A stretch of DNA of 64,000 bases from an uncultured Bdellovibrionales bacterium (GTDB lineage Bacteria > Patescibacteriota > Minisyncoccia > Moranbacterales > UBA1568): assembly GCA_964624415.1 (NCBI GenBank), contig CAZUWR010000002.1, positions 76,454-140,453 on the forward strand, in the 5' to 3' direction. Shown one piece after another: positions 1,956 through 23,229 of the stretch. A program made the translations under genes and the position numbers. Position 1 is the first letter of the stretch. Every line of letters starts with the position of its first letter. Below the pieces are notes generated by a model that was not told the origin of the DNA, ran no database searches, and saw only the letters and a program-made list of their open reading frames with translations.

Positions 1956-2070
1956 GCGCATAGCAAGAAGATGTTTCTTTTGGAGGCTTGCGAGACTGTC
2001 GAGGTGAGCACGAGGAATTTTTCAGCAGAAAAATATCCGTACTCCAAAAAAACATCTTCTTGCTATGCGC
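1956..2070. repeat. Structured intergenic repeat family A, copy A1 (27 bp perfect inverted-repeat arms flanking conserved ~65 nt core)
   Basis: Arms gcgcatagcaagaagatgtttcttttgg / ccaaaaaaacatcttcttgctatgcgc. Core ggaggcttgcgagactgtcgaggtgagcacgaggaatttttcagcagaaaaatatccgtactcc is shared with copies at 4903, 8674, 9967, 23113. Confidence 0.8.
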
Positions 2071-2092
2071 GGTATAGGAGAAATCAGCTAGA

Positions 2093-2947
2093 TTACCTTG
2101 CATCAAGATAATCCCGATAAGCGCGGGCGACTTCTTTGGCAACAAGGTTTGTGCCTGAAGCGCAGTTAAAGTAATTTTTGATGCGGCGCCCAAGAAAATA
2201 GAGCATCACCCATGGCCTCAGAGAGGCTGGCGTATTTTCATGGAAAAATTGTAATCCGGATACAACCAGCCAGTACATTTTTTCAGGGTTATCCTCAGAG
2301 TTTTCCGCATGAAATATGTGCGTAGTGGGGACAACGAGGAGTCCGAATCCGGCACGCGATGCCTTAACACTAAAGTCAGCATCTTCATAGTAGAGAAAGT
2401 ATTTTTCATCGAGCAGCCCGACTATTTTGAAGACGTCTTTTTTGATCAGCATCGCGCAGCCGCAGATGTATTCTGAGGGAAATGATTGCAAGAGCGTGGG
2501 CGGACTGACATGCAGTGTTCGCATATGTATCCAGTCGATAACACCCTTTCCAAACCAGATATTTTTGGTGCGGGTATGCAGAATGAGCGGACTGAGAATG
2601 CCGGTTTTTGGCTGCTGTTCACCGACCTCGACAAGTTTGGTAAGTGAATCCTTTTCCACAGTGGCGTCGTTGTTGACGAGCCAGACATAATCGGCACCTT
2701 TTTCAAGAGCGAAACGGATACCGACATTATTGCCGGCAGCAAAACCGAGATTGACGTCATTTTTGATGAAGTGCGCGCGTGAAAACAGGCGCTTCGCTTC
2801 TTCGATCGATCCGTCTTTGGAATCGTTATCGATCACCACTACCTCGAAATTCTGGTAGCCGAGTTGATACACAGATTGAAGACACGCCTTAATCGTCGCC
2901 TTGCCGTTGTAGTTGAGGATGAGGATGAAAACTTTCGGATGGGTCAT
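2093..2947 (-). CDS. Glycosyltransferase family 2
   Basis: ORF 2093..3037; start chosen at internal Met (MTHPKVFILILNYNGKA...) typical of GT2 beta1. Motifs VVVIDNDSKDGS, DADF-type DxD. Longer start at 3037 possible. Confidence 0.65.
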   Translation of the reverse strand: MTHPKVFILILNYNGKATIKACLQSVYQLGYQNFEVVVIDNDSKDGSIEEAKRLFSRAHFIKNDVNLGFAAGNNVGIRFALEKGADYVWLVNNDATVEKDSLTKLVEVGEQQPKTGILSPLILHTRTKNIWFGKGVIDWIHMRTLHVSPPTLLQSFPSEYICGCAMLIKKDVFKIVGLLDEKYFLYYEDADFSVKASRAGFGLLVVPTTHIFHAENSEDNPEKMYWLVVSGLQFFHENTPASLRPWVMLYFLGRRIKNYFNCASGTNLVAKEVARAYRDYLDAR

Positions 2948-2960
2948 AGTAAACAGTATA

Positions 2961-3416
2961 TCACCTAGGAAGTGTTCCATGAAACCCATGGGCTTTGTCA
3001 CCGAGTCGTATGCCATAGGCATATGCCCACACGTCAACGTCGATCCATTCGGTGCCGACTTTCGCTTGCAGGTATTGATGAGGGGAGATATACCAGATAT
3101 GCGTCCATCTCAAACGAATATCGCTCTCGGTGAAAAATCCGCTTTTGACAAGAAGAACCCTGAGGAGGTAATTGATGTTGGTGCAGTGAAGAAAGCCGTT
3201 TTTGTGCCAGAGTACTGCAATGTCACGCAAAAATATATCCGATAAACAGGTATAGGTTTTAAGTCGTTCCCCGTGATATTTCTCAGTAAGTATTGTGTAT
3301 GCATTAAACAAGCATATTTTTTGAGAAACTGATTGCTTGAGTTGTTCCGCTACTATCCGCATATCCTCGGGCAGTGATTCAGGAAGAGGCGTTCTTGAAA
3401 AGAAATCTAAAGGCAT
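2961..3416 (-). CDS. Hypothetical protein, possible transglutaminase-like (Cys-His-Asp) fold
   Basis: 151 aa ORF between GT2 and flippase genes on same strand. Pattern LHCTNINYLLRVLLVKSGF ... THIWYISP ... EWIDVDVW resembles Cys/His/Asp core of transglutaminase-like superfamily. Weak, by eye only. Confidence 0.35.
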   Translation of the reverse strand: MPLDFFSRTPLPESLPEDMRIVAEQLKQSVSQKICLFNAYTILTEKYHGERLKTYTCLSDIFLRDIAVLWHKNGFLHCTNINYLLRVLLVKSGFFTESDIRLRWTHIWYISPHQYLQAKVGTEWIDVDVWAYAYGIRLGDKAHGFHGTLPR

Positions 3417-3427
3417 ACGGTACGCAG

Positions 3428-4876
3428 TTATTCAATGACTACACCTTTCCCGCGGGCGAATTTGGAACCGGCAAGGACCTGGAGAATCTCCTCTTTTTCG
3501 ATGGCATCGGTCATCCAGAGCGAAACAAGATAGATGGCGATGCTACCGAGAATAAGCAACGCCAGGTGAAGATGCGGGAAGAAAAAAAGATACAGACCCA
3601 TAAGTGCCCCGGAAAAAGCGACTCTTCCGAAGTGGGTGGAGCTTGGTCGGTAGTGGGTGTGCTTATACACAAGAGTGAATGAGAGAAGAACAACGAACAT
3701 TTCCGTCAGTACGGATGTGAATGCTGCCCCCGTATAGGAATAGCGGGGAATGAGGATCAGGTTGATCAGTATATTGATGGTGGCGACGACGATAAGGGCT
3801 TTCATAAGTTTGCCCTGGAGATTGCTGACGACCAGTATGGTATTGAAAAACTGTCCGAAAAAGATGAAGGCGAGGGCGAAGACGAGGATGCGGAGTACGG
3901 TTGCCGATTCGGGAAATCCGGCACCGCCGATGATACTGACGATTTGCGGTGCGAGGAAAAAGACGCCGATGACGAGCGGCACGACGAGCACGAGAAAAAC
4001 CTTGAAGGTTTTGTTGGCAATAAGATCAAACATATTCCGGTCGGTAAAGACATAGCGTGAAAGCAGAGGAAGCACGAGACCGGCAACCATAGCGGGGAAG
4101 AAGATGAGATTCTCAATCACTTTGTAGGCGACATTGTAGATGCCAACATCGGCAGATGTTTTCAGAAATGACAGCAGGATGGTATCGGCTTTGAAGTAAG
4201 CGAAAGTCACGACGGAGGCGATACCGAGCGGAAGAGCTTGTACTAGAAAGCTTTTCCAATAGACCCGATCATACTGGAAGGAGAAGGTGAAATAGCGCCG
4301 GCTGATCCAAAAAACAACGATGGCATTGAACATCATATACCCGAGTAGGGCGAGTGCGATAGTGATGAATCCGAGGTGTTGCTGTACTGCTAAAAGAATG
4401 ATGCCGAGCTGGACGAGTTTGCCGAGGAGCTCGATGGTGGCTACCTTGTCCATAGCCAGGTGTTTTTGGAAAATGCCGTTGAGTGTCATGGAAACGGAGG
4501 AGAAGATGAAGGCGACCGCCGCGATAATGATGGCGAATTTGAGATCGAATGAATAAGGGAGGAAATAGACCAGTATCGGTGTGAGAAGAAGAATCACTAA
4601 AGAAATGAGTAGGCGCAAGGTGAGTACATTGCTCATGATATGGCTTTCCTTGGCACCTTCGCGGGATATTTCGCGAGCCGTGACCGATTGGAGGCCCAGG
4701 TCGCCGATGGCATTGAAAAAACTGAAAAAAGCGAGCATAGTGGCGTAGTCTCCGAAGCCATCCTTGCCCAAATAGCGCGTAACAAAACCGATGGCGACCA
4801 ATGCCAAGGCGGTCGAAATGATTTTCGCCACGGCGTTGAAGACGACATTGTAAGCTATTCTTCCGGCTAATGCCAT
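3428..4876 (-). CDS. Polysaccharide biosynthesis protein / oligosaccharide flippase (MOP superfamily, Wzx-like)
   Basis: 482 aa, ~12-14 predicted TM helices, N-terminal motif typical of Wzx/MOP flippases (AKIISTALALVAIGFVTRYLGKDGFGDY). Confidence 0.7.
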   Translation of the reverse strand: MALAGRIAYNVVFNAVAKIISTALALVAIGFVTRYLGKDGFGDYATMLAFFSFFNAIGDLGLQSVTAREISREGAKESHIMSNVLTLRLLISLVILLLTPILVYFLPYSFDLKFAIIIAAVAFIFSSVSMTLNGIFQKHLAMDKVATIELLGKLVQLGIILLAVQQHLGFITIALALLGYMMFNAIVVFWISRRYFTFSFQYDRVYWKSFLVQALPLGIASVVTFAYFKADTILLSFLKTSADVGIYNVAYKVIENLIFFPAMVAGLVLPLLSRYVFTDRNMFDLIANKTFKVFLVLVVPLVIGVFFLAPQIVSIIGGAGFPESATVLRILVFALAFIFFGQFFNTILVVSNLQGKLMKALIVVATINILINLILIPRYSYTGAAFTSVLTEMFVVLLSFTLVYKHTHYRPSSTHFGRVAFSGALMGLYLFFFPHLHLALLILGSIAIYLVSLWMTDAIEKEEILQVLAGSKFARGKGVVIE

Positions 4877-4902
4877 AAAAATCTGTGAAATTATTGGGGG
4901 GA

Positions 4903-5014
4903 GAATGATATGAAGATACTATTTTTGGAGTACGTGCATTTTTCTGCTGAAAAATTTCTCGTGCTCGCCCCGTCGGGCTTCGCAAGCCTCCTAAAATAGT
5001 ATCTTCATACCATT
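4903..5014. repeat. Structured intergenic repeat family A, copy A2 (inverted orientation)
   Basis: Arms gaatgatatgaagatactatttttgg / cctaaaatagtatcttcataccattc (2 mismatches) flank core ggagtacgtgcatttttctgctgaaaaatttctcgtgctcgccccgtcgggcttcgcaagcctcc. Confidence 0.8.
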
Positions 5015-5119
5015 CTCGCGACCTATGCAACGAATTCCTAAATTCTGGAAGTTTAGTGTGATACAAAAAATCCTTGATACAACCAGTATATCAAGGATAG
5101 CTTTACAAAGAAAGGTTAC

Positions 5120-5596
5120 TTAGAGTATCGGGGCGGGCTTGACCGTTACTTTCCGGTTTTCATTGACACCGGTGCTCTCCGTCACCACCTCTTTATTGAG
5201 CGCCAGCTCCGCGTGAATGATCTTGCGTTCGTATCCGGCCATAGGTCGCAAAACAACCGGCATGCGCGTCTGAAGCGCTTGTTGCGCGGCACCGTGTGCC
5301 TCTTTGACCAGCGCCTGGCTTTTTTGTTCCCAATAAGAATTGACATCCAAAGAGAAAACCACGTTTTGCTGGAATTCTTTTTTGGCTAAAAGTCGAATGA
5401 TATGCTGGAGAGCCTGAAGATTGACACCGTGCTGACCGATCAGGAGATTGGAATCTCCTTCGACGCGGATATTGCAGATGAAATCGCCCTGACCTTCACA
5501 GACCGGTTCGCGGAGGCTGACCTGCGCCTCAAATCCCATATGCTCGACGATGGTTTGTGTGATGGCTTGTATGCGGGTGGCTTGAGTGATATCCAT
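5120..5596 (-). CDS. jag: Jag/SpoIIIJ-associated RNA-binding protein (KH + R3H domains)
   Basis: 158 aa; conserved position downstream of yidC; sequence resembles KH/R3H Jag family (IGQHGVNLQALQHIIRLL...). Confidence 0.65.
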   Translation of the reverse strand: MDITQATRIQAITQTIVEHMGFEAQVSLREPVCEGQGDFICNIRVEGDSNLLIGQHGVNLQALQHIIRLLAKKEFQQNVVFSLDVNSYWEQKSQALVKEAHGAAQQALQTRMPVVLRPMAGYERKIIHAELALNKEVVTESTGVNENRKVTVKPAPIL

Positions 5597-5607
5597 ACGG
5601 GTGTTTT

Positions 5608-6339
5608 TTATTCCTTAACGGGTTGAGCGGTTTTGAGGATGTATTCTTGTTGGGCGATCATAAAGAGTGTTGATACGAGCCAGTATAAAGAAAGTCCGGC
5701 CGGAAAAGTGAATCCGATAAACAGTGTGAGCAATGGCCCGATAATGAGCATCTGCTTGGTCATGATGGTGGCGAAATCAGGCTCACTGTCATCTTTCGGT
5801 GCGGTTTTTGGCTGGCGCGCTATCATGATTTTGGTCTGATAGTACTGGGCGGCTGCTGCCAGCACAGCAAAGACATAGTTCGGATGAGTAAGATCAACGA
5901 TGCTTAAAAAGAGGTGATGAATTTGCCCTGGGTTGGCGATAAAGGTGTAAAGATTTTCTCCCTGCACCTGCAGTCCGGATTGAGAAATATTGATAAGAAC
6001 GCGGTAGATGGCGATGAAGAAGGTGAGTTGCACGATAAGTGGGAGGCACCCTGCCGCGAGATTAACCTCTTTTTCCTTATAAAGCTCTGCGAGAGCAAGG
6101 TTTAATTTCACCTTATCTTTTTTATGCTTATCTTTTAATTGTTTGATAAGTGGTTGCAGTTCCTGCATTTTCTTCTGTGATTCAATCTGTTTGTGCGCAA
6201 GAGGAAAAAGAGCGAACTTCAAAATCAATGTCGTGAGAATGATAGCGATACCGAAATCATGCCCTGGAACCGTATTGTAGAGGAAAATAAGGACATTGTA
6301 GATTGGGTTATAGACCAAAGTGTCAAAGAGAGCCATCAT
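5608..6339 (-). CDS. yidC: Membrane protein insertase YidC (short form)
   Basis: 243 aa, 5 TM helices, conserved synteny rnpA-yidC-jag. Confidence 0.8.
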   Translation of the reverse strand: MMALFDTLVYNPIYNVLIFLYNTVPGHDFGIAIILTTLILKFALFPLAHKQIESQKKMQELQPLIKQLKDKHKKDKVKLNLALAELYKEKEVNLAAGCLPLIVQLTFFIAIYRVLINISQSGLQVQGENLYTFIANPGQIHHLFLSIVDLTHPNYVFAVLAAAAQYYQTKIMIARQPKTAPKDDSEPDFATIMTKQMLIIGPLLTLFIGFTFPAGLSLYWLVSTLFMIAQQEYILKTAQPVKE

Positions 6340-6686
6340 GAAATTGTATGTAAGAGATTATTTTTTTTCAAAAGCAGGCGCAGATCACGCTCAATAGCAT
6401 CGTATGTCAGAGTTTCCGGTTTGTAGCGATACAAGACAATGATAGCAAAACCAGGCCGTAATGCAAAGAGCTGCGAGCGCATCGCTTCCCGTAAAACTCT
6501 TTTGGCGCGGTTCCGGTTGACGGCTTTGGGGAAGTTTTTTTTGCTCGCAATAAAACCCACCGCGGATCGCGAGAGGTGGGTCGGGCGCCATTTGAGGGAG
6601 AGTGCACCCAGTGATGCGTAAGAACCCTCTTTGAATATGAGCGCGAAAGCCTTCTTATGAGACAGACGAAAGTTTACGGGCAACAT
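6336..6686 (-). CDS. rnpA: Ribonuclease P protein component
   Basis: 116 aa basic protein. RnpA-like motif (KAVNRNRAKRVLREAMRSQ). Overlaps yidC start by 4 nt. Follows rpmH. Confidence 0.8.
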   Translation of the reverse strand: MLPVNFRLSHKKAFALIFKEGSYASLGALSLKWRPTHLSRSAVGFIASKKNFPKAVNRNRAKRVLREAMRSQLFALRPGFAIIVLYRYKPETLTYDAIERDLRLLLKKNNLLHTIS

Positions 6687-6708
6687 TTCAGCATTATCAC
6701 GGCTTAGT

Positions 6709-6850
6709 TTATGCGGTGAGCTTCTTGCGTCCTTGTGCGCGGCGGCTTTTTACGATGTTTTGGCCGTTTTTCGTGGACATACGCTCACGGAAACCATGCT
6801 GCTTCTTCCTCTTAAGGCTCTTTGGCTGAAACGTTCTTTTCGGCATACAA
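6709..6850 (-). CDS. rpmH: 50S ribosomal protein L34
   Basis: Manual translation of minus strand: [45 protein letters not shown]. Classic L34. Below the 60 aa ORF-track cutoff. Confidence 0.9.
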
Positions 6851-6945
6851 TTAAACTTATACGTGGGTTAGACAATGTACTATCCAGTATACCAATAAAG
6901 CCAAAAAAGTCAAATAAAAAAGAACTACGCTCAAACGCGGAAGTC

Positions 6946-7086
6946 TTAGTAACTGTCTAAAATCTTTCCGTTTTTTGCTTTTGCATAGTGTTTTTTCGAA
7001 CTGCCGGGTCAAAGACGAAAGGCGAGAAAAAATACTATGCAAAAGCCAAAAAACAAGAAGGGAAAGATTTTAGACAGTTACTTAGT
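6946..7086. repeat. Structured repeat family B, copy B1 (~140 bp near-perfect hairpin), located in rpmH-dnaA spacer
   Basis: ttagtaactgtctaaaatctttccgttttttgcttttgcatagtgttttttcg [loop aactgccgggtcaaagacgaaagg] cgagaaaaaatactatgcaaaagccaaaaaacaagaagggaaagattttagacagttactaa. Copies at 25098 and 35730. Confidence 0.85.
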
Positions 7087-7103
7087 AAAAGAGAGGTATC
7101 TTC

Positions 7104-7112
7104 TTATCCACA
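7104..7112 (+). promoter_or_regulatory. DnaA box (TTATCCACA, perfect consensus)
   Basis: Exact 9-mer in rpmH-dnaA intergenic region, ~100 bp upstream of dnaA start. Confidence 0.6.
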
Positions 7113-7135
7113 CAAGGAGCTCACTTGTGCACAAG

Positions 7136-7144
7136 TTATCCACA
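7136..7144 (+). promoter_or_regulatory. DnaA box (TTATCCACA, perfect consensus); with AT-rich stretch 7150..7210 = candidate oriC/DUE
   Basis: Second exact 9-mer 32 bp downstream of first, same orientation, followed by AT-rich segment before dnaA ATG at 7212. Confidence 0.6.
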
Positions 7145-7211
7145 ATACCCTCTATTCCTCCTTTTTCGCCTATGCTATACTTTTGATACTGACCATAAAT
7201 AAGACAGTCAT

Positions 7212-8663
7212 ATGAGCAACGAAGAGCTTTGGAAAGCGGTTTTAGGGGAGTTAGAGCTTTCCATATCCAAAGGCGAATTCAATACATGGTTCAAAAACAC
7301 TTCCATCGTCTCGCACGAAAATGGGCGTGTGGTTATTAGTGTTCCGAGCGGTTTTGCGCGTGAGTGGCTTGAGAATAAGGTGAATATGCATATTCTGCAG
7401 TCCCTGAAGCATTTGCAGAGCGATATTACCGAGTTTTCATGCGTTATCAATGCGCCTGAACAAAAATTGACGCAGACACAGTCATTTACCCAGACACAGA
7501 CCGGATTCGTGTCTTCGCATGGGGCTTCTGCAAACTCGCCATCACAACCGCAAGCGACGCCGTCGTATCCTGCCGGCGCTGCCGTGCCGTATTATCCGCC
7601 TCAAGCGCATCCCGTTCAAACCGCAACCAAAGCCAAACAAGAGCACGCCCTCAATCCGCGCTATACATTTGAGAATTTTATTGTCGGTGAGAATAATGAG
7701 TTGGCGAGAGCTGCTTGCTATGCGGTATCGCAGAATCTCGGACAGTTGTACAATCCGATTTTTATCTACGGTGGCGTGGGACTGGGTAAAACACACTTGT
7801 TGCAGTCTGTTGGCAATGAGGTGTTGAAACATCACCCCGATATACGCATCAAGTATACGACGGCCGATTGGTTTACGGGAGAATTAGTGGAATCCATTCG
7901 CAATCAGAAAGTGGCGGAATTTAAAGAAGCCTATCAGAAAGCCGACCTTCTCATTATCGATGATATCCAATTTCTTTCGGGACGAGAGAAGACGCAGGAT
8001 GAATTTTTCCATATTTTCAATACGCTTTACCAAGCCAATAAGCAGATTGTACTGAGTAGTGACAGACCGCCGCAGGCCATCCCGACACTTGAGGATCGTC
8101 TACGTTCGCGTTTCCAAGGCGGAATGATCGCGGATATTGGCAGACCCGACCTTGAGACTCGTATGGCTATTTTAAAAATCAAGACCGCTGAGAGACATTT
8201 TTACCTCGATGATGAGGCGGTGCGTTTTATTGCTGAAAATGTAACTAATAACATCCGTGAACTCGAGGGAGCGCTTAATCGCATTATTGCTTCCTGTGAG
8301 TTCCATAAGATCGTGCCGACCATCGCATATATCAAAAAAACGCTCGGCTCTATTATCGCCAATACCAAACGCGTCGTTAGTCCGGAGCGCATTATGAAGA
8401 TGACAGCTGAGTTCTATAATATCGAAGAGGATGATCTGACACGCAAGGGGCGCAAGAAGGAAGTGGTACACCCGAGACAAGTGGGAATGTATCTGATGCG
8501 TATGGAGCTTCAAACCTCATTCGCGGCTATCGGAAAGTATTTCGGGGGTCGAGATCATACCACGGTGCTGCATGCCTGCGAGAAGATCAAGGATGATTTG
8601 GATGAGAACTTGCGGCTCAAAGAAGAGGTCACGAGTTTGCGGGAGAAGTTGTATCGGGAGTAG
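7212..8663 (+). CDS. dnaA: Chromosomal replication initiator protein DnaA
   Basis: 483 aa. AAA+ Walker A (GGVGLGKTHL). C-terminal DNA-binding domain. Q/T/P-rich linker. Confidence 0.95.
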   Translation: MSNEELWKAVLGELELSISKGEFNTWFKNTSIVSHENGRVVISVPSGFAREWLENKVNMHILQSLKHLQSDITEFSCVINAPEQKLTQTQSFTQTQTGFVSSHGASANSPSQPQATPSYPAGAAVPYYPPQAHPVQTATKAKQEHALNPRYTFENFIVGENNELARAACYAVSQNLGQLYNPIFIYGGVGLGKTHLLQSVGNEVLKHHPDIRIKYTTADWFTGELVESIRNQKVAEFKEAYQKADLLIIDDIQFLSGREKTQDEFFHIFNTLYQANKQIVLSSDRPPQAIPTLEDRLRSRFQGGMIADIGRPDLETRMAILKIKTAERHFYLDDEAVRFIAENVTNNIRELEGALNRIIASCEFHKIVPTIAYIKKTLGSIIANTKRVVSPERIMKMTAEFYNIEEDDLTRKGRKKEVVHPRQVGMYLMRMELQTSFAAIGKYFGGRDHTTVLHACEKIKDDLDENLRLKEEVTSLREKLYRE

Positions 8664-8673
8664 GCAGACGAAA

Positions 8674-8785
8674 GGATAGGAATGAAGACTCTTTTTTGGA
8701 GGCTTGCGAGACTGTCGAGGTGAGCACGAGGAATTTTTCAGCAGAAAAATATCCGTACTCCGAAAAAGAGTCTTCATTCCTATCC
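8674..8785. repeat. Structured intergenic repeat family A, copy A3 (dnaA-dnaN spacer)
   Basis: 26 bp arms ggataggaatgaagactcttttttgg / ccgaaaaagagtcttcattcctatcc. Core identical to A1. Confidence 0.85.
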
Positions 8786-8812
8786 GATATATCACTCATA
8801 ACATTATTTATT

Positions 8813-9961
8813 ATGAAACTCATTTGCACACAGGAAAATTTACGAAAAGCAATTGCGGCAGCAGAGCGCGCCGTGGGTCGTCAGAGCACACTGCCGATTT
8901 TGGGCAACTTTTTGCTCGAAACCGAAAACGGACGACTCAAACTTTCCGCAACCAATCTTGAGATCGGTGTTATCGCGCGCGTCGGAGCCAAGATCGAATC
9001 CGACGGACGCATCACCATTCCTGCCAAACTGATGAGCAATTTTATCAGCAATCTTCCCTCGGGAGACACCATCGTGTTGGAATCGGAAGGACAGTCCTTG
9101 AAAATATCCAGCGGCGGATACTCGGTCAAGATCAAGGGATTGGACGCCCAAGAATTCCCATTGATACCGCAGCATCATGGGACGCAATTTCTCACTATTC
9201 CGGCGCAGCCACTGCGCATCGCGTTGTCCAAGCTCTTGCCGTGCGTCGCGCTCAATGAAGCTCGTTTGGAATTGACCGGTGTCAATATCATTTTCGCAGA
9301 AAACTCGATGTGTTTGGCCTCGACGGACAGTTTCCGTTTGGCGGAAGAGAGCATCGCTTTGGATGGCAATAACGTCGCCAGTGTCGCCTCCTCATTCCCT
9401 CAAGGATCATGCATTATTCCAGCCGCTACCTTCTCTGAGGTATCCCGAGTGATCAGTCCGGAGAGCAAGGAAGTCAAGCTTGCTTTCGAGGAAAATCAGA
9501 TTTTTTTCGAGGTGGACGGTGTACAAATTCTCTCGCGCCTAGTGAGCGGAAAATTCCCGGATTACAAGCAAATTATTCCCGAGCAATTCGCTTTGCAGGC
9601 CATTGTGTCTCGCGAGGACTTACTTCGCGCGGTCAAAATCGCGACCGTCTTCACCTCGCAGACCTCGCAGGAGCTTGTGTTTCGCGTTGATCCGCAGGCC
9701 GGACAGATCGTCATTGAGTCCCGCTCGCAGGAAATGGGAGAAAATCAAACTATCTTGCAGGCAGATATTGCCAGTGATATCCCGCTTGAGATGGTGTTTA
9801 ATCCAAAATATATCCTCGATGGTATCAATACGATAGCGACGTCCCGTATCGCGCTTTTGGCCAATGAAAGCACCACGCCAGCGGCGCTGAAAACAGTCGA
9901 CGAGGAAACCGGAACCGTATCGGGGGAGTATGTGTATATCATTATGCCGATCCGGAATTAA
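8813..9961 (+). CDS. dnaN: DNA polymerase III beta subunit (sliding clamp)
   Basis: ORF 8696..9961. N-terminal 39 codons overlap repeat A3, so start set at MKLICTQENLRKAI (ATG 8813), the typical DnaN N-terminus. Confidence 0.85.
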   Translation: MKLICTQENLRKAIAAAERAVGRQSTLPILGNFLLETENGRLKLSATNLEIGVIARVGAKIESDGRITIPAKLMSNFISNLPSGDTIVLESEGQSLKISSGGYSVKIKGLDAQEFPLIPQHHGTQFLTIPAQPLRIALSKLLPCVALNEARLELTGVNIIFAENSMCLASTDSFRLAEESIALDGNNVASVASSFPQGSCIIPAATFSEVSRVISPESKEVKLAFEENQIFFEVDGVQILSRLVSGKFPDYKQIIPEQFALQAIVSREDLLRAVKIATVFTSQTSQELVFRVDPQAGQIVIESRSQEMGENQTILQADIASDIPLEMVFNPKYILDGINTIATSRIALLANESTTPAALKTVDEETGTVSGEYVYIIMPIRN

Positions 9962-9966
9962 AATAG

Positions 9967-10089
9967 AGTTCCTTTGAGTATATATCTTCCGCCGGGTACA
10001 GGATATTTTTCTGCTGAAAAATTCCTTGCGCGCTCGCCCCGCCGGGCTGCGCGAGCCCCCTTGCGAAAGACATATACGCAAAGGAACGT
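9967..10089. repeat. Structured intergenic repeat family A, divergent copy A4 (dnaN-DUF721 spacer)
   Basis: Arms agttcctttgagtatatatcttc / aagacatatacgcaaaggaacgt. Core retains ggatatttttctgctgaaaaattcc and GC-rich hairpin cgctcgccccgccgggctgcgcgagc. Confidence 0.7.
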
Positions 10090-10103
10090 CACTCTTTAAG
10101 GCT

Positions 10104-10406
10104 ATGCAAAAAATCGGAAGCCTTCTCATGCAAACCTATCAGGAGCGTGTTGCCAAGATAGTCCTTGACGACCAGACGGTTTTCTTTATCTTCCGAAAGA
10201 TTGTCGCTCAAGAATACGGTGCTCGCGGGGAACGGTATATCGAACCGAGGTATTATAAAAACAAGAAGCTGTTTGTTGCGGCCAAAAATTCGCTCTGGAT
10301 GAGCGAGTTGCAGCTCAGTCGGCAACATTTTATGGATGCTATCAACAAAGAGCTCGGCTCTGAAGCGGTGGTAGAAATAAAAGTAGAGAGCAGTTTTGCT
10401 TCGTAA
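10104..10406 (+). CDS. DUF721 (DciA-like) protein
   Basis: ~100 aa from MQKIGSLL. Pattern F.KIVAQEYGARGERYIEPRYYKNKKLFVAAKNSLWMSELQ...INKELG fits DUF721 consensus. Position right after dnaN is typical. Confidence 0.55.
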   Translation: MQKIGSLLMQTYQERVAKIVLDDQTVFFIFRKIVAQEYGARGERYIEPRYYKNKKLFVAAKNSLWMSELQLSRQHFMDAINKELGSEAVVEIKVESSFAS

Positions 10407-10416
10407 TAAAAAATAT

Positions 10417-11116: not shown

Positions 11117-11136
11117 GCATTGAAAGCAAGCATTCC

Positions 11137-14159: not shown

Positions 14160-14165
14160 GGTCTT

Positions 14166-14296: not shown

Positions 14297-14419
14297 GTAT
14301 TTGGAGGACGTATTCAAGAAAATATCCAAAAAAACTTGACTTTTATAATAAAATATTGTATTGTTAATAATCAAGCAAAAGGTTTGTTTGTGCCGTAATC
14401 AGGATAAGAAACAGACCCT

Positions 14420-15367: not shown

Positions 15368-15396
15368 GAAGCTTTCGAAAAGCTGTAAGCGCCGTC

Positions 15397-16788: not shown

Positions 16789-16826
16789 AAAAAAGTGTAT
16801 TATATCTCAAAAAGAATCGCGATATT

Positions 16827-17480: not shown

Positions 17481-17521
17481 ACGAATATATGATGATGAAT
17501 TAAGGGAAACATCTCTCTGAA

Positions 17522-18007
17522 TTAGTGTAAAATATTCATTTTTCGGCTATTGATATGACACAGCGCCAGTGCAAGCGCATCGGCGGTGTCATCGGGCTTG
17601 GGAATAGCATCGAGCTTGAGGATGTTTTTGACCATCAGCTGCACCTGTTTCTTTTCGGCTCTACCATACCCCGTAAGAGACTGTTTTACCTGAAGGGGAG
17701 TGTATTCGAACATCCTAACCCGTAATGACTCCAGCGTCAAGAGAATGGCACCTCTCGCCTGACTGACTGACATCACTGTTTTGACGTTTTTGAAAAAGAA
17801 AAGTTCTTCGACGGAAGATTCATCAGGATGATGCGTGTTGATAATATCAGTAAGGTCGCGCGAAATCTCGAGCAGGCGTTCGGAAAGAGAGCGGTCTTTG
17901 GAGGTGCTGATATGGCCGTAAGCCAAGGGTGTCAGCTGACCCTTGATTTCTTCGATAATCGCCCAGCCGACGATAGCTGTGCCGGGGTCTATGCCGAGAA
18001 TTTTCAT
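17522..18007 (-). CDS. ruvC: Holliday junction resolvase RuvC
   Basis: MKILGIDPGTAIVGWAII... canonical RuvC N-terminus and catalytic Asp residues. Confidence 0.85.
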   Translation of the reverse strand: MKILGIDPGTAIVGWAIIEEIKGQLTPLAYGHISTSKDRSLSERLLEISRDLTDIINTHHPDESSVEELFFFKNVKTVMSVSQARGAILLTLESLRVRMFEYTPLQVKQSLTGYGRAEKKQVQLMVKNILKLDAIPKPDDTADALALALCHINSRKMNILH

Positions 18008-18103
18008 ACAACGAGAATCAATGAGCAATTAGCAGTTAACAATTAACGGATACTATATGAGGCGAGAATTTCGTTGATTGTTAATTGTTTTTTGTTGATT
18101 GCC

Positions 18104-18826
18104 TTACAGATTGGCGTAGACGGTTTGCACATCGTCGTGATCCTCGAGTTTTTCAATCAGGAGCTCACACTGCGCCAGCTGCTCCGGCGAAGGAGTTGCT
18201 TTCTGTGTCGGGAGAAAGGTGAGTCCGGCGTCTTTAATAATCAATCCTTGCTGTTCGAGTGCTTCTTTGGTTGTCTGCAGGTCTTCGATTTTCGTATAGA
18301 CCGCGCATATGCCGTCTTCTTCGAAAAAAGCGATATCGTCAGCTCCCGCCTCGATGGCCTGCATCTCGATATCATCCCTGTTTTTTCCTTCGGTATCGAG
18401 GATGATTTCCCCGACCTGACGAAACATAAAACTCACGGATCCGCTGGGCACCATCTTGCCGTTGGTTTTAGTGAGGATAGTTTTGATTTCACTGACGGTT
18501 CGGTTGCGGTTGTCGGTTGCTGTTTTGATAAGGAGTGCAATCTGACCGGGGCCGTACCCTTCGTAGAGATTTTCTTCGATCGTGGTGCCATCCTTGAGTT
18601 CTCCGGTGCCGCGCTTGATGGCGCGCTCGATGTTTTCTTTGGGCATATTCATGCTGCGTGCCTGATCGACTGCCATACGCAGTTTGAAGTTTGTTTCCGG
18701 ATCCCCGCCGCCTTCGCGCGCCGCGATAGTGACGATGCGGCCGTATTTGGTGAAGACATTGGCGCGCTTGGCGTCATTGACCCCTTTACGTTGCTTTATT
18801 CCAGCCCAGTGTGAGTGTCCTGACAT
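18104..18826 (-). CDS. YebC/PmpR family DNA-binding transcriptional regulator
   Basis: MSGHSHWAGIKQRKG... hallmark N-terminus of YebC family, 240 aa. Confidence 0.85.
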   Translation of the reverse strand: MSGHSHWAGIKQRKGVNDAKRANVFTKYGRIVTIAAREGGGDPETNFKLRMAVDQARSMNMPKENIERAIKRGTGELKDGTTIEENLYEGYGPGQIALLIKTATDNRNRTVSEIKTILTKTNGKMVPSGSVSFMFRQVGEIILDTEGKNRDDIEMQAIEAGADDIAFFEEDGICAVYTKIEDLQTTKEALEQQGLIIKDAGLTFLPTQKATPSPEQLAQCELLIEKLEDHDDVQTVYANL

Positions 18827-18989
18827 ACAAAGAAATTCAATTCATTACTGATTTCATCCTATAGGAAAACCGTTTTAAAATCAAGGGAAAAGAGGGAAAT
18901 AAAAATCTCTACCCCGCAGTGTTTTGCGAAGTAGAGAAAGGGTGCGCGATGGCATAGATTATACCTGGTATGTAAATAAATGGTTTTAA

Positions 18990-19238
18990 TTAAACATCTT
19001 GAGTAGGTTCTTTTTCTGTAGAGAATGTTTCAGGAAAGAATTTTTGATAAAAGCGATACACTCCGAAAAACAACAAAGACAGTATAATCACAATACCGAT
19101 AAGCGATAAAATAATTTGTTCTATGCTGATACCATCTTGCACAAGAGCAACCGCATAGGAACCTAAATTATCCACCAAGGGAACCAAAAATGACAATGCG
19201 ATAAAACACACTATCAAGAAAGTGAAATTGATTTTCAT
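18990..19238 (-). CDS. Small membrane protein, hypothetical
   Basis: 82 aa, two TM helices. Confidence 0.35.
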   Translation of the reverse strand: MKINFTFLIVCFIALSFLVPLVDNLGSYAVALVQDGISIEQIILSLIGIVIILSLLFFGVYRFYQKFFPETFSTEKEPTQDV

Positions 19239-19443
19239 TTCATTTGCCTCACTGATTTTTAAAGAAACCTTCGCGAAGTTTCAGCGAAGATGATTATGCT
19301 GCATTAAGCATTTTTATTATAGCGGGTATTTACATTGATGTCAATACTTTATGGCTTTATATGGCTTTAATTAAAACTGTATCCGCAAGTTCATCCATTT
19401 CGTGTATACTTGAGTAAGCAATTAAATTAATTGGATATTTTCT

Positions 19444-20292
19444 ATGCCGGAATTACCCGAGGTGCAAACCGTCGTTTCTCAGCTGGGAGAAAAAATCGTC
19501 GGGAAGAAAGTGAAATCCGTGTGGAGCGACTGGTCCAAAGCCGTGCGCCCGTCTTTGGTGATTTTTAAGAAGGAGATTGTCGGCGCAAAAATTATCGGAA
19601 CGAGACGGAAAGGAAAACACGCTATCCTCGATTTGGACAATGCGCATTCTATCGTCATACACCTCAAGATGACCGGGCATTTGTTGGTCAAAAACGATAT
19701 CAATCGCGAGAATGAGACATTTAAGGATCCGTACAATCAATTTATTCATCACATCCTCGCCTTTGCCGATGGCACGACGCTTGAGTTTTCGGATATGCGC
19801 AAATTCGGCTGGATGGAAGTGATGTCGACTGCGGATGTTGAAACACTCCCAAGTATCGCCTCGCTTGGAATTGATGCGCTTTCAGAAAAGTTCACACCGA
19901 AAGTACTCGATGAAATAGTTGCGAAAAAAGCCAAGTCGAAAATCGGCGCACTGCTTCTTGAGCAAGGAATTATCGCCGGCATCGGCAATATCTATCGCAG
20001 CGAATCTTTGTTTCAAGCAGGTATTCTTCCTGATAGGGTGGCCTCAAGTCTTTCTAAGGATGAACAGCATATCCTTTTGGCGAGTATCAAGAAAGTCCTT
20101 CGTAAGGCGTTGAAACACCGAGGGATGTCGGATGGCGACTTCCGCGATACCGATGGCAGGGAGGGAGAATTTCAAAAAGTTTTGGGCGTGTATGGACGCA
20201 GTGGAAAACCCTGCCCTAAGTGTGGTACAATGATACAACGAATGAAGTTGGGGCAAAGAAGCGCGTTTTTTTGTCCCTCGTGCCAACAATAA
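19444..20292 (+). CDS. mutM: Formamidopyrimidine-DNA glycosylase (Fpg/MutM)
   Basis: MPELPEVQTV N-terminus (catalytic Pro2/Glu3). H2TH region. C-terminal CPKCG...CPSC zinc finger. Confidence 0.9.
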   Translation: MPELPEVQTVVSQLGEKIVGKKVKSVWSDWSKAVRPSLVIFKKEIVGAKIIGTRRKGKHAILDLDNAHSIVIHLKMTGHLLVKNDINRENETFKDPYNQFIHHILAFADGTTLEFSDMRKFGWMEVMSTADVETLPSIASLGIDALSEKFTPKVLDEIVAKKAKSKIGALLLEQGIIAGIGNIYRSESLFQAGILPDRVASSLSKDEQHILLASIKKVLRKALKHRGMSDGDFRDTDGREGEFQKVLGVYGRSGKPCPKCGTMIQRMKLGQRSAFFCPSCQQ

Positions 20293-20308
20293 TTATCTAT
20301 CTCACGAT

Positions 20309-21505
20309 ATGAGCAATAAGCAAAAAATAGTGGTGGCGGTTGTAGTCGTAGCTATCGTTGCGGTGGGCGCATATTTTTTCCGGGATCGTCTCGGTTTAAA
20401 TAAAACACAAGTTAAGCAAATAGAACTTGATAAAAAACCGACAGTAGAAAATACCGGCCCGGTCAATACCGGCCCGGTCAGTCCGATTTCGGGTATCGCG
20501 TGCGAGCATTGGAATCGTCGTCCATTCGCGGTGATGCAACCGGTGGATGTCCAGGCACGTCCGGTCGCCGGATTTTCACAGGCGGATATGGTGTTTGAAA
20601 TGCCCAATCCGGCGGCTGGAATTTTTGTGACGCGGTTGCTCGGTGTTTATTTGTGCGATATGCCCGCCGAAATCGGCGCGATGCGCAGCGCTCGGCACGA
20701 TTATATCAATGTTGCCAAGGGATTGGATGCTATTTTTGTCGGATGGGGTGGATCGGCATTCGCTATCGCGAAGCTGAATGCCGGCGTGATTGACAATATC
20801 GACTGCAACGGTGAGGGTGGAAAGAAGGCTCCGGACTGCTGTTTTCGTAAAGAAAAAACAGGTCTGATGCGCGGAGAGGATACCGGTTTCGCCAAGGGTG
20901 AAAAACTCCTCAGTTGCGCGCAAGATTTCGGTTATCGTATGGAATCGAAGTTCGCAGGTTACGCTCACCAAGATGCACCAGCTACGGATGCACTTCCGAA
21001 TGGCGGGCACCTTTCTATCGGTTTCCCTGGTATTATGAAAGCCGATTACGATTATGATCGCGCCACTAATTCTTACCTGCGAACCTGGGGGAATGCTGAA
21101 GACAAAGATCGCAACAACGGCCAGCGTATCGCGCCGAAAAACATCGTGGTGCTCATTGCGGACAATGAACAGATTTTGGCAGATGTGGATTACAAAGCGC
21201 GAGGCGTGCAGGATCCGTGGGAAGGATTGGAAGCGTGGGAAAAGGAAGGACCGAAGAACATTTCCGGACGCTACAACAATATCCAACTCGGAGACCCATG
21301 GTTCGATACCAATGATAGCGGCGATATTCGTTATTACATGAACGGACAGGAATACAAAGGTACCTGGAAGAAAGACAAGTCGAGTCTCGACAGCAAACTC
21401 TTCTTCTTCGATGAATCGGGAGCCGAGGTGAAATTCGTCCCCGGACAGATCTGGGTGGAAGTGATGACCCCGGCACAGAAATTCACCTGGACCCCGGCAT
21501 CGTAG
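20309..21505 (+). CDS. DUF3048 (YerB-like) membrane-anchored protein
   Basis: N-terminal TM anchor. RRPFAVMQPVDVQARPVAGFSQADMVFEMPNPAAGIFVTRLLGVY fits DUF3048 N-domain consensus. Confidence 0.5.
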   Translation: MSNKQKIVVAVVVVAIVAVGAYFFRDRLGLNKTQVKQIELDKKPTVENTGPVNTGPVSPISGIACEHWNRRPFAVMQPVDVQARPVAGFSQADMVFEMPNPAAGIFVTRLLGVYLCDMPAEIGAMRSARHDYINVAKGLDAIFVGWGGSAFAIAKLNAGVIDNIDCNGEGGKKAPDCCFRKEKTGLMRGEDTGFAKGEKLLSCAQDFGYRMESKFAGYAHQDAPATDALPNGGHLSIGFPGIMKADYDYDRATNSYLRTWGNAEDKDRNNGQRIAPKNIVVLIADNEQILADVDYKARGVQDPWEGLEAWEKEGPKNISGRYNNIQLGDPWFDTNDSGDIRYYMNGQEYKGTWKKDKSSLDSKLFFFDESGAEVKFVPGQIWVEVMTPAQKFTWTPAS

Positions 21506-21544
21506 GTGAGGGCACGAGAGAACGATATCGCATGTTTTATGTAT

Positions 21545-21580
21545 AAAAGAACAGCTTAGAGTGAGCTGTTCTTTTACTTT
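21545..21580 (+). terminator. Intrinsic terminator
   Basis: aagaacagct-tagagtg-agctgttctt followed by T-rich tract. Confidence 0.55.
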
Positions 21581-21612
21581 CAAAAAAAGCCCATATAAGC
21601 TATACTAAGGCT

Positions 21613-22584
21613 ATGATTATCTTTTTATACGGGCAGGACGCGTTCCGTTCCCGGGAAAAAATGACCGAGCTTCGCAATGCCTACCTGGAGAAAAATCCTT
21701 CTTCAGGACTGTTCGAATTTGATGGAGAATCCGCTTCGGAGGAAACGATCAAGACTCTCAAGCAAACGCTCAATGAGTCGGGGCTGTTCGCGACCAAAAA
21801 ACTGGTGATACTGAAGCGTTTTACGGAAGCACCGGAATTTTCACAGAAGAAATTGGCAGAGTTTTTGGAAGAGAAATGCGCGAGTATCGATACTAATAAA
21901 GACAATATTTTGATCGTATGGGAGGCAACACTGCCCAAGAAAACCAATGTGCTCTTCAAGCTGCTCGACAAGCAGGTGGCCAAAAAACAACAGTTTGAAA
22001 TATTGAAAGGTATACGACTGGAACAATGGATCATCCATCGCATACACCTAATCGACGCGCAGACCAACATCGAAAAGAGAGCACTTCCGCTCTTGGTATC
22101 CGAAATGGGCGATGATTTATCAGCACTTGAAAATGAATTGCGAAAACTGACGGATGTCTGTGAGGACAAGCTGATACGCGAGGCCGATGTGGCGCTCTTC
22201 GTATCGCAGTCGGTGCGGAGTTTGGTATTTGAGGCGCTGGAGGCGCTGGCGTCGGGCAATCGTGTAAAAGCTCTAAGTCTCTTTGAGGCGCAGTTGGAAA
22301 AGGGAGAGAACGCGCTCTACCTCCTCTCGATGTGTGCATGGCAAATGCGCAATCTCCTCAAGGTGGCGGACGGCTATGCGGATGGAATGCGACAAGCATC
22401 GCTTCTTGCCAAAGAGCTCAAGCTCCATCCGTTTGTGGTGCAAAAGTTGCTTCGCCAAATCGGCGGATTCCCGATAGAGCGGATCAAAAAAAGTTTCGCA
22501 TTGCTCGCCGATCTGGACACACAATCCAAAAGCGGTCAGATCGATCCGAAGTTGGCGCTTGATATATTTGTGATGAAGGTATAA
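21613..22584 (+). CDS. holA: DNA polymerase III delta subunit
   Basis: MIIFLYGQDAFRSREKMTEL... typical HolA N-terminus, 323 aa. Confidence 0.75.
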   Translation: MIIFLYGQDAFRSREKMTELRNAYLEKNPSSGLFEFDGESASEETIKTLKQTLNESGLFATKKLVILKRFTEAPEFSQKKLAEFLEEKCASIDTNKDNILIVWEATLPKKTNVLFKLLDKQVAKKQQFEILKGIRLEQWIIHRIHLIDAQTNIEKRALPLLVSEMGDDLSALENELRKLTDVCEDKLIREADVALFVSQSVRSLVFEALEALASGNRVKALSLFEAQLEKGENALYLLSMCAWQMRNLLKVADGYADGMRQASLLAKELKLHPFVVQKLLRQIGGFPIERIKKSFALLADLDTQSKSGQIDPKLALDIFVMKV

Positions 22585-22605
22585 GTGAAAATAGTGTGTG
22601 TATGA

Positions 22606-22640
22606 TGAAAAAAACAGACCCATGGAGGGTCTGTTTTTTT
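22606..22640. terminator. Bidirectional intrinsic terminator between holA and rpsT
   Basis: aaaaaaacagaccc-atggag-ggtctgttttttt. Confidence 0.65.
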
Positions 22641-22666
22641 ACCGGTAAATACAAGAAATCGAAAGA

Positions 22667-23053
22667 CTATTTCTTGGCTGCAACTTTTTTCGCAACTTTA
22701 GCTACAACCTTCTTTGCGACTTTCTTTTTCGCAGGCGCTTTCTTTGCGACTACTTTCTTCGCAGGCTTCTTCGCAACGGCTACTACCTTGCCGATGGAAT
22801 TTTTTACGAGCGTGTTGAGACGGGATTTCTTTCGGGCAGCGGTGTTTTTCTTGAGCACTTTCTTCTGAGCAGCTTTATCCAAAGACTTGATAGCTGTCTT
22901 GAGCCACTTCTGTGCATCGTCGGTATTGCCGGCCTTTACCGCTTCACGGGTTTTTTTGATAGCACCTTTGAAGGTTCCTTTGACGATTTTGTTGCGAGCG
23001 GTTTTGCGTTCGGTGACGCGCATGTACTTCTTAGCACTTTCTTTGATAGGCAT
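22667..23053 (-). CDS. rpsT: 30S ribosomal protein S20 with ~40 aa Lys/Ala-rich histone H1-like C-terminal tail
   Basis: N-terminal 88 aa = S20 (MPIKESAKKYMRVTERKTARNKIVK...). C-terminus KKPAKKVVAKKAPAKKKVAKKVVAKVAKKVAAKK encoded by degenerate tandem nucleotide repeats. Confidence 0.85.
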   Translation of the reverse strand: MPIKESAKKYMRVTERKTARNKIVKGTFKGAIKKTREAVKAGNTDDAQKWLKTAIKSLDKAAQKKVLKKNTAARKKSRLNTLVKNSIGKVVAVAKKPAKKVVAKKAPAKKKVAKKVVAKVAKKVAAKK

Positions 23054-23112
23054 AATGTTGTCGTTTGTATCTTTACGAGAGCAACGTAAAGAGATACGTG
23101 AAATTAAAAGGC

Positions 23113-23229
23113 GGGAATGATAAGTGGATATTATTTGCTGAGTACGTGCATTTTTCTGCTGAAAAATTTCTCGTGCTCGACCCGTCGGGCTTCGCAGGCC
23201 TCCGCAAACAATATCCGCTTATCATTAAC
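23113..23229. repeat. Structured intergenic repeat family A, copy A5 (rpsT/ruvA divergent spacer)
   Basis: Arms gggaatgataagtggatattatttgc / gcaaacaatatccgcttatcattaacc. Core tgagtacgtgcatttttctgctgaaaaatttctcgtgctcgacccgtcgggcttcgcaggcctcc. Confidence 0.8.

Follow-up and report, generated by a model that had tools for sequence, protein, structure and literature searches.

What kind of sequence keeps an elaborate fold while its outer stem changes from copy to copy? This question is raised by family A, a hairpin element with five copies between positions 1956 and 23229 of the 64,000-nt stretch analysed in our study (the window; assembly GCA_964624415.1, contig CAZUWR010000002.1, positions 76,454 to 140,453 of the forward strand), which was deposited as an uncultured Bdellovibrionales bacterium and is placed by GTDB in the Patescibacteriota. 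Family A is dispersed across the whole phylum, covaries in all three of its stems and is constrained to fold on one strand, independently of host transcription. Between close relatives it is gained, lost, inverted and replaced by other subtypes, copies inside genes are translated in frame, and no gene is fixed beside it. We hypothesize here that family A, a palindromic repeat, is mobile or 'driven' but non-autonomous, and that its Y-shaped fold on one strand is read by a factor encoded elsewhere; our confidence in this reading is evenly divided.

Fold and covariation

One strand of the element, taken as '+' when it reads GGAGGCTTGCG...GTACTCC, folds into a Y in which a long variable stem (P1) carries two short hairpins (P2 and P3). 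The structure was drawn from a gap-poor seed alignment, tested and then built into a covariance model (CM), R1. In the copy between dnaA and dnaN (c3, + strand) the two strands of P1 lie at 8674-8701 (5') and 8758-8785 (3'). P2 (8703-8728) consists of the pairs C8703-G8728, U8705-A8726, G8706-C8725 and C8707-G8724, a tandem G·A (8708-8709/8722-8723), a stem of 4 bp (8710-8713/8718-8721) and the loop GUCG (8714-8717). P3 (8730-8754) reads GGAAUUUUUC-AGCA-GAAAAAU(A)UCC, with its loop at 8740-8743 and a bulged A at 8751. Across the family P2 follows the form 5'-C·U-UGC-GA-[4 bp + loop G-N-(N)-N-G]-GA-GCA-C·G-3' with compensatory exchanges (U-A/A-U, C-G/U-A, C-G/A-U/G-C), and the invariance of both GA dinucleotides in alignment A2 indicates a putative tandem sheared G·A.

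All three stems covary in the 119 model-aligned copies, as a preliminary description of this DNA had proposed for the arms: 29 of the 30 modelled pairs vary on both sides, and 93.4% of cells are paired, compared with 69% in shuffles and 40-56% when the partners are slid. A compensatory sub-hairpin of the core, part of that same description, held up across the 119 homologues, where all four of its stem pairs covary, but only in part within the window: GCCC/GGGC pairs perfectly, whereas GACU/AGGU, found in c1 and c3, has a G·U as well as an A·G mismatch. P3 appeared invariant because the word used in the search fell in the core; in copies found by the model only and in orthologous copies fetched through their proteins, P3 is compensatory as well (AAAUUUC/GAAAUUU, AUUCGCC/GGUGAAU, AUCCGCC/GGCGGAU, GCAAUUCGCC/GGCGAAUAUGC), and the AGCA loop is usually retained.

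The fold is also extended in some copies. An additional hairpin of 20-40 nt is present inside P2 in L025, L030, L067, L114 and L123, and in several lineages the structure continues outward via a purine-rich internal loop (5'-GUYGA…/…GARWAA-3') to another short helix. GA on both flanks, found in 15 of 116 copies at about 4.5 times the expectation, extends the structure as a tandem G·A. L006 and L036 share one 3' arm, with which two different 5' arms are paired. The repeated unit of genome CAIOTC01 (L006, L040, L071) is longer than the hairpin, with a conserved 5' flank (…ACCACTAGCAAATTTTGT) and 3' flank (TAAGAAATTTGCG), and variation in these copies is confined to the middle 11 bp of P1 and consists mostly of transitions.

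Other readings of the core were tried and dropped. A longer P3 by GAGCACG/CGUGCUC pairing meets A/U variants without covariation, the positions of a hammerhead-like CUUGCGA…GAG are covarying Watson-Crick pairs, and a pseudoknot between the P2 loop and CCGU revealed no covariation by eye.

The five copies in the window

The five copies are present where the preliminary description had placed them, with slightly refined limits (c2 now spans 4901-5017), and Pfam agrees with the gene contexts it had assigned. Copy c1 (1956-2070, +, 83.7 bits with the CM; P1 arms 1956-1985 and 2042-2070, core 1986-2041) lies in the spacer between two GT2 genes and is antisense to both. The flippase/jag spacer holds c2 (4901-5017, -, 84.1 bits; arms 4901-4930 and 4988-5017, core 4931-4987), which is sense to both genes, belongs to subtype B, whose P3 base is disrupted (…AAAAAUGCACGUA). 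Copy c3 (8674-8785, +, 91.5 bits) is sense to both dnaA and dnaN. Antisense to its two neighbours is c4 (9967-10089, -, 58.1 bits; core ~9996-10057), a divergent subtype C copy in the spacer between dnaN and dciA (DUF721) that ends 15 nt ahead of the dciA start codon. The fifth, c5 (23113-23229, -, 76 bits; arms ~23116-23142 and ~23200-23226), occupies the divergent rpsT/ruvA spacer and is again of subtype B.

As initially proposed, these copies do make up a true repeat family, with arms that covary around a conserved core. An invariant 20-mer recurs at the five loci only (chance expectation 0.02), and the CM, run over the 64-kb window, matched c1-c5 and nothing else. Fold energies range from -47 to -67 kcal/mol (z -6.5 to -10 against shuffled sequence), the '+' orientation giving the more stable fold in four of the five. 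Within each copy the two P1 arms, 25-30 bp long, show 93-96% complementarity to one another, around a core of 56-62 nt. Between c1 and c3 the core is identical at 56 of 56 nt and the arms are just 76-80% alike; the corresponding values for c2 and c5 are 96% and 67-73%.

Reach across Patescibacteria

When 185,579 species genomes were scanned with a core word of 22 nt, family A was found at no fewer than 120 loci, each examined over up to 8 kb, so that the further copies sought by the preliminary description do exist; the counts given here on the 120 loci rest on the matches listed from this word scan. Essentially all loci belong to metagenome-assembled genomes (MAGs) of Patescibacteria. The window itself most likely comes from such a MAG of the Moranbacteria, since the closest named match to its DnaA bears the label Candidatus Moranbacteria. 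Among the matches listed, the host labels include Nomura-, Taylor-, Yonath-, Wildermuth-, Zambryski- and Nealsonbacteria, 'Paceibacterota', 'Minisyncoccia' and many Saccharibacteria, together with three contigs from one MAG that bears an unchecked Gammaproteobacteria label. A core of ~60 nt is common to all listed loci, and the arms are unrelated between loci and complementary within each; copies are 35-80% alike in their outer arms, compared with ~90-100% in the core. P1 has a median length of ~20 bp and reaches 48 bp at the longest, and the whole element, with limits set by P1-boundary detection, measures 82-134 nt across the loci, compared with 112-123 nt for the window copies.

Family A had no match among 2.9 million viral contigs and is therefore not phage-borne. 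The apparent novelty claimed for it at the outset stands: with Rfam 15, the tmRNA and tRNA alone reached the gathering score over the whole window, a search of 8600-10150 at E<=10 gave chance matches alone (Spy392987 at 18 bits, U6 at 14 bits), and the searchable literature on the core sequence, on repeats or miniature transposable elements with inverted repeats (MITEs) of the candidate phyla radiation (CPR) and on structured RNAs contained nothing relevant to family A. Two copies often stand next to each other, separated by 30-80 nt and for the most part oppositely oriented (L031 6001-6209, L035 449-644, L041 1224-1462, L065 1532-1731, L017 453-652), an arrangement reminiscent, by analogy, of BIME-like clustering.

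Strand and orientation

The constraint on the structure, suspected from the beginning, was located on a single strand. Read on the strand of the core, P1 contains 61 G·U and 11 A·C oppositions (p ~1e-9) under a counting rule that treats the two alike. The ratio of G·U to A·C is 12:1 where the flanking genes run with the element and 21:5 where they run against it; since the excess is the same in both contexts, the fold-constrained strand is set by the core and not by host transcription. The folded strand is the C-rich one in 73 of 119 copies and in 52 of 80 at loci with strong skew, a weak bias in which loci of the same genome are counted separately.

Orientation relative to genes, assigned with a simple open reading frame (ORF) model, is unbiased: between co-directional genes 26 copies are sense and 33 antisense, and further copies lie between convergent (19) or divergent (13) genes. 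The distance from a copy to the upstream stop codon is short, with medians of 11-32 nt. Across the listed loci no U-tract follows P1, the flanks are unrelated, and neither a conserved promoter nor a conserved terminator is present. An intrinsic terminator was ruled out as the identity of the element, given that P1 is not followed by a U-tract and orientation is unbiased. A canonical intrinsic terminator for jag was noted at 5075-5112 on the minus strand (hairpin GGATCCTTGATA…TATCAAGGAT, then a T-run), and it is conserved in relatives both with and without c2. Ordinary terminators thus exist in this genome, and c2 comes on top of one of them.

Copies inside genes

Long continuous reading frames contain about 17 of the 119 copies (14%). 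Pfam domains flank the insert on both sides in TsaD, PheT, UvrD, RecG and phosphoglucomutase; ComEC (two copies), ArgS, Dus and a TldD-like protein are further hosts by sequence alone. A peptide search with a concatenated insert query, limited by its word index, gave 12 matches and adds SpoU, FolD, MnmA and a phosphoribosyltransferase (PRTase). The TsaD copies of four genomes share one loop immediately ahead of the PRPM motif, and the PheT copies of three genomes share one linker ahead of the FDX-ACB domain. Ten in-gene copies are sense and seven antisense to their gene, and all 17 are in frame without a stop codon, so that they are translated and not spliced out. The core through P3 is open in five of the six frames, and the in-gene copies occupy linkers and loops where added peptide is tolerated. 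Twelve seemingly frame-shifted cases proved to be ordinary spacers between two complete genes. No rRNA signature motif that would point to rRNA-embedded copies was found in L001-L130.

The TsaD site was followed through the 120 closest homologues, of which 50 have a recognisable insert peptide in a sample biased to carriers by the word index; in the 60 rows inspected, most non-carriers have variants of similar length and a few have no insert. DNA was fetched for four of these homologues. Two carry sense copies in which the sequences of P1, P2 and P3 differ and the fold is the same, one carries the copy inverted at the same site with an intact ORF, and in a close relative (84% identity) the 5' arm and the core have been lost and a remnant of the 3' arm is left. 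Beside this remnant, at ~780-830 of L134, stands a new small perfect hairpin, GAGUGCAGA-AAA-UCUGCACUC. When orthologous TsaD or PheT copies are compared, identity is 57-70% in the flanking coding DNA and 35-71% in the arms; in the core it is ~90% where lengths are equal and 72-76% where P2 has an insertion.

Turnover between close relatives

Loci of relatives were fetched around homologues of DnaA. Among the close ones, empty, flipped and swapped sites were all found, which bears on the question of mobility that the preliminary description had directed at sister genomes. In L121 (DnaA 92%) the two GT2 genes overlap and the site is empty, a different hairpin family fills the flippase/jag spacer, the dnaA/dnaN spacer is filled, and the dnaN/dciA spacer is filled with another core subtype. 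The latter two spacers are also filled in L125 and L126 (DnaA 89%), where the flippase and jag genes are separated by 71 nt without an element; L126 further carries a GT2/GT2 copy that is reversed relative to the window and has unrelated arms. The c2 site between flippase and jag is empty in L125, L126 and L135. Copy c3 is flipped relative to the dnaA/dnaN copies of L121, L125, L126, L123 and L124 (DnaA of the last two, 90%); it has a c1-type core, theirs being of the other subtype, and shares with those copies just the outermost and innermost arm bases. Between the window and L125, P1 of the dnaN/dciA copy differs by at least five double compensatory substitutions. The same spacer of L123 (3090-3320) holds a truncated copy that is cut inside P3. 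Behind this copy follows a small hairpin repeat (…GTCATTCCCGTGAAAACGGGAATCC…) which resembles an inverted repeat at 44546-44616 of the window, and the two may represent a further repeat family.

Relatives with DnaA identities of 83, 75, 67 and 60% gave no CM match in 11-21 kb each, and the dnaA/dnaN spacers of three of them measure just 27-66 nt. Metagenome loci of flippase homologues, picked independently of the element (56 loci, 320 kb), contain one copy, compared with five in the 64-kb window; the family has thus expanded in some lineages and is rare or absent in near neighbours.

The arms of different loci can be related, as for …TTGTGTGCGAG… in L121 (dnaN/dciA) and L125 (dnaA/dnaN) and for c1 and c3, and in one Wildermuthbacteria genome they are near-identical over ~40 nt at different loci (L009, L114). 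The copied unit is therefore the whole hairpin, arms and core. Fold-back or target-derived arms were dropped as an origin, since arms at different loci resemble each other and not their own flanks. Neither a target-site duplication nor a common target was seen in 116 copies, the GA flanks being the only signal. As neighbours within the 120 loci of up to 8 kb, no transposase, reverse transcriptase (RT) or HUH gene recurs, and the largest cluster of neighbouring genes comprises 8 of the 120 loci. The 30 window ORFs that were scanned include no transposase; the ORFs of the window are housekeeping genes.

What the element may be

The mobile or driven element hypothesized here would work as follows. 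A trans-acting factor, encoded elsewhere, would recognise the folded single strand and copy the element to new sites or convert one existing copy by another, and this copying or conversion would hold the core near-identical while the arms drift and get re-paired. Mobility would proceed through a single-stranded intermediate, the arms would be kept paired by selection for the fold, helped by templated palindrome repair, and the host would tolerate harmless sites, namely positions just past stop codons in spacers and in-frame linkers or loops of proteins. Gene conversion between copies fits the identical cores of c1 and c3 beside their diverged arms, the subtype replacement between dnaA and dnaN and the in-place inversion in TsaD. 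As to the chemistry of the folded strand, we lean slightly towards single-stranded DNA rather than RNA, because conserved promoters and terminators are lacking and antisense in-gene copies are as conserved as sense copies; the tolerance of G·U and the transitions running through G·U favour RNA.

Several results weigh against this hypothesis. The TsaD and PheT sites represent long-term maintenance in place across deeply diverged genomes, with arms that are saturated and still paired. Such maintenance fits a function at the level of the host at least as well, and a purely selfish element does not obviously account for it, as this needs frequent gene conversion or templated palindrome repair. The tandem G·A, invariant as it is, the AGCA loop and the additional hairpins that some members have in P2 look like parts of a functional structured RNA. 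No mobilising enzyme was encountered in the 8-kb loci or among the scanned window ORFs, and the metagenome scan, in which the closest strains were 84-85% identical, offered no near-identical strains and no exact junction between a filled and an empty site.

Two host-functional explanations gain strength from the way in which tsaD and pheT have kept the fold across deep divergences. According to one of them, which we regard as unlikely while granting it real weight, family A is a multi-copy small RNA or part of a ribonucleoprotein (RNP), freed for example by RNase III cutting P1 and acting in trans. Three-stem covariation, the invariant tandem G·A, the conserved AGCA loop and P2 insertions of variable length occur together as in bona fide RNAs, RNA helices typically show such an excess of G·U compared with A·C, and arms vary through G·U intermediates, as the shared 3' arm of L006 and L036 with its two different 5' partners illustrates. 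However, a promoter, a terminator and a U-tract behind P1 are all missing from the unrelated flanks, half of the copies (including conserved ones in pheT, argS and one tsaD) are antisense to the sole obvious source of transcription, copy number is very patchy among related genomes with losses that go without replacement, and RNase III processing, if intended, would make a 25-30 bp duplex within essential coding sequence self-destructive. The other explanation, which we consider quite unlikely, places the function in the DNA, as an extruded hairpin or cruciform, or a hairpin formed while the DNA is transiently single-stranded, bound by a conserved patescibacterial protein (nucleoid, replication or repair), or as a signal for uptake or recombination that would spread in natural transformation through biased transmission, like the DNA uptake sequences (DUS) and uptake signal sequences (USS). 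A constraint that is independent of the direction of transcription and present in genes in both orientations, the apparent confinement to one phylum with lineage 'dialects' or subtypes and the weak C-rich-strand bias agree with such a site, and so does the natural competence of Saccharibacteria (PMC10633639). Opposed to it are the 61:11 asymmetry, which needs a reader of one strand because G·T and A·C would cost a cruciform the same, and a density (five copies in 64 kb here, one in 320 kb in relatives) far below and patchier than that of uptake sequences. DUS and USS are also found inside genes and as hairpin pairs, which is a further parallel, but a receptor that binds double strands has no need of stem covariation, and the skew bias is weak with same-genome loci counted separately.

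The remaining explanations look to the neighbouring genes. A cis-acting element, that is an intercistronic stabiliser, attenuator or terminator or a structure associated with oriC, would suit the usual place of the copies, between a few nucleotides and a few tens behind the preceding stop codon; any long hairpin will presumably affect the decay or processing of an mRNA, and dnaA is close to four of the window's five copies. The strand constraint holds irrespective of host transcription, which speaks for excluding both cis-regulation and an oriC role, and we judge this explanation very improbable. The stabiliser or attenuator first suggested is contradicted by the balance of 26 sense and 33 antisense copies, by the same G·U signature in both contexts and by the ~17 of 119 copies in frame within genes: the fold constraint tracks the core and not the mRNA, unrelated genes are flanked or interrupted across the 120 loci, and the hairpin ends without a U-tract. 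A link to oriC or to dnaA and dnaN, likewise suggested, does not survive the short dnaA/dnaN and dnaN/dciA spacers of the relatives with 60-83% DnaA identity, which have no CM match there, or the single copy in 320 kb of related loci. GC skew, moreover, is positive in every 2-kb bin of the window and does not change sign at dnaA (7212-8663) as at an origin; either the origin is not beside dnaA, or skew here does not track replication. Close to negligible, finally, is the probability of an intron-like intervening sequence that is cut from transcripts (by RNase III or an endonuclease, with ligation) and absent from the protein. In its favour are the intervening sequences known from CPR rRNA genes and the copies in essential genes, where the core is conserved and a paired stem links the 'exons', but splicing or excision was ruled out by the reading-frame statistics, as about two thirds of spliced copies would be expected out of frame and 17 of 17 are in frame and stop-free. 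Seven of these are antisense to the mRNA, they lie in linkers and loops tolerant of added peptide, and the inverted TsaD copy keeps its ORF.

Beyond the mobile or driven element as such, family A may represent a new structured nucleic-acid class that has its own function and is not selfish DNA in decay, either a phylum-wide, trans-acting RNA or RNP that can be embedded at any site, essential genes in both orientations included, or the substrate of a new copying or recombination system specific for single strands. We put this forward tentatively, as possible rather than probable, because all three stems are deeply maintained in place inside tsaD and pheT. If the copying-system form were true, DNA mobility or molecular drive would have a new mode here, signalled by the Y-shaped fold and not by a terminal sequence.

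Comparison with known elements

In its behaviour family A appears closest, by analogy, to the Rickettsia palindromic elements (RPEs) and more loosely to REPINs. RPEs (Ogata et al. 2000) are hairpin repeats without a transposase that lie in spacers and in frame in housekeeping genes of reduced genomes, as described in PMC10969869. Family A resembles them as a hairpin repeat of ~100-150 bp that has no transposase of its own and is dispersed in the spacers of small, host-dependent bacteria, and in its in-frame insertion into unrelated housekeeping genes, where peptide is added at permissive places. The likeness concerns behaviour, and with hosts among the Patescibacteria it is very unlikely that family A belongs to the RPEs by descent. 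RPE families are generally conserved from end to end. Family A, in contrast, conserves the three-stem core alone, with an outer stem of 20-48 bp that differs in each copy and stays paired; its core has RNA-like covariation and a tandem G·A, and its TsaD site is filled across a deep clade.

Repetitive extragenic palindromes (REPs) and REPINs are likewise dispersed hairpins without target-site duplication or an internal transposase gene, in which the single-stranded fold matters and which persist vertically. The layout of a REPIN, two conserved REP arms around a variable loop, is reversed in family A, where variable arms enclose a conserved centre. REPs measure 20-40 nt and are strictly extragenic, whereas family A measures 82-134 nt and is intragenic in 14% of copies; the GTAG-type 5' motif and the cognate RAYT gene of REPs were not seen in the loci of up to 8 kb. 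MITEs such as Correia/NEMIS, ERIC, RUP and BOX are similarly small, non-autonomous, multi-copy, hairpin-forming and sometimes intragenic, and both they and, presumably, family A influence transcripts as a side effect. The classical MITE considered in the preliminary description is nevertheless not what was found: MITEs have conserved terminal inverted repeats to which a transposase binds, a target-site duplication and a related full-length insertion sequence (IS), whereas the ends of family A are variable, no duplication is present, and no parent IS was seen in the 8-kb loci.

Two more distant parallels concern signals read by proteins. DUS and USS, which serve here as a lead only, occur in taxon-restricted dialects, free of orientation, in genes and as hairpin pairs, and are kept by biased transmission; they differ from family A as double-stranded motifs of 10-30 bp, at ~1 per kb and without stem covariation. 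The inverted terminal repeat (ITR) of adeno-associated virus (AAV), alike in shape only, combines a long stem with two small hairpins (T/Y) in 'flip' and 'flop' orientations and is read as single-stranded DNA by an HUH nuclease. It is, however, a viral replication origin at genome ends and family A a dispersed chromosomal repeat, for which no Rep-like gene and no viral-contig match was found. Retron msr/msd or another RT-linked non-coding RNA was rejected for want of a recurrent neighbour gene (largest cluster 8 of 120 loci), and integron attC on account of its opposite layout (variable base, conserved centre) and because the copies of family A are single and dispersed. Palindromic dispersed repeats that also lie in frame in genes are thus already known. 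Family A itself, its phylum-wide reach, a three-way-junction core in a free-running stem and a strand constraint independent of transcription are not catalogued in searchable sources.

Other repeats and RNAs in the window

Two further hairpin families were noted. Family B comprises three near-perfect hairpins of ~145 nt (6942-7088, 25095-25240, 35726-35869; -55 to -72 kcal/mol, z -8 to -13) with arms of ~55 bp around a small core, CGAACUGCCGGGUCAAAGACGAAAGGCGAG, and one of its copies lies in the spacer upstream of dnaA. Family C (~120 nt) is present at 23328-23446 and 27721-27841 of the window, the former ~100 nt from c5, and at ~7790-7900 of L121, where it fills the flippase/jag spacer that holds c2 in the window. 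It follows the design principle of family A, a conserved structured core in differing outer arms, and its + strand folds at -56 kcal/mol, compared with -39.5 kcal/mol for the - strand.

Heptamer-periodic tracts (CAATCAA/CAAACAA…) occur at 24238-24316, 30296-30372, 38650-38700, 46815-46851, 47461-47506 and 54856-54906, and also at 18010-18053, 34296-34409 and 61762-61851. Six tracts are translated in frame as Q/N/T-rich inserts, for example INQQLTNNNHQTAINRQQ, in FemAB, ArgRS, IleRS (twice), TGT and the ORF at 30096-30596, and form a second type of protein insert that derives from repeats; in L128 the flippase/jag spacer is occupied by a similar tract. The tmRNA at 37113-37508 (-, 115.7 bits) has an insertion of ~38 nt in its tag-coding region relative to the Rfam consensus, and a tRNA of 85 nt with a long variable arm is located at 34458-34542 (+).

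Significance

Family A accounts for many of the inserts of 25-40 residues in CPR proteins such as TsaD, PheT and ArgS, and it marks lineage-specific expansions. Annotation pipelines extend ORFs across the element and should mask it: spurious ORFs run over c1-c5, and the 'dnaN' call of L127-type records has 420 aa, compared with ~382 aa in other relatives, as the ORF is extended across the element.

Genomes of Patescibacteria measure roughly 1 Mb and contain very little spare DNA. These tiny genomes still carry family A and at least two further hairpin families of the same design, in spacers and in essential genes. If family A is mobile, it points to an unrecognised system of mobilisation or gene conversion that reads a folded single strand, and it would be a second, independent case of palindromes of the Rickettsia type remodelling proteins. 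If it is functional, it would be a structured RNA or DNA of wide occurrence for which Rfam has no entry.

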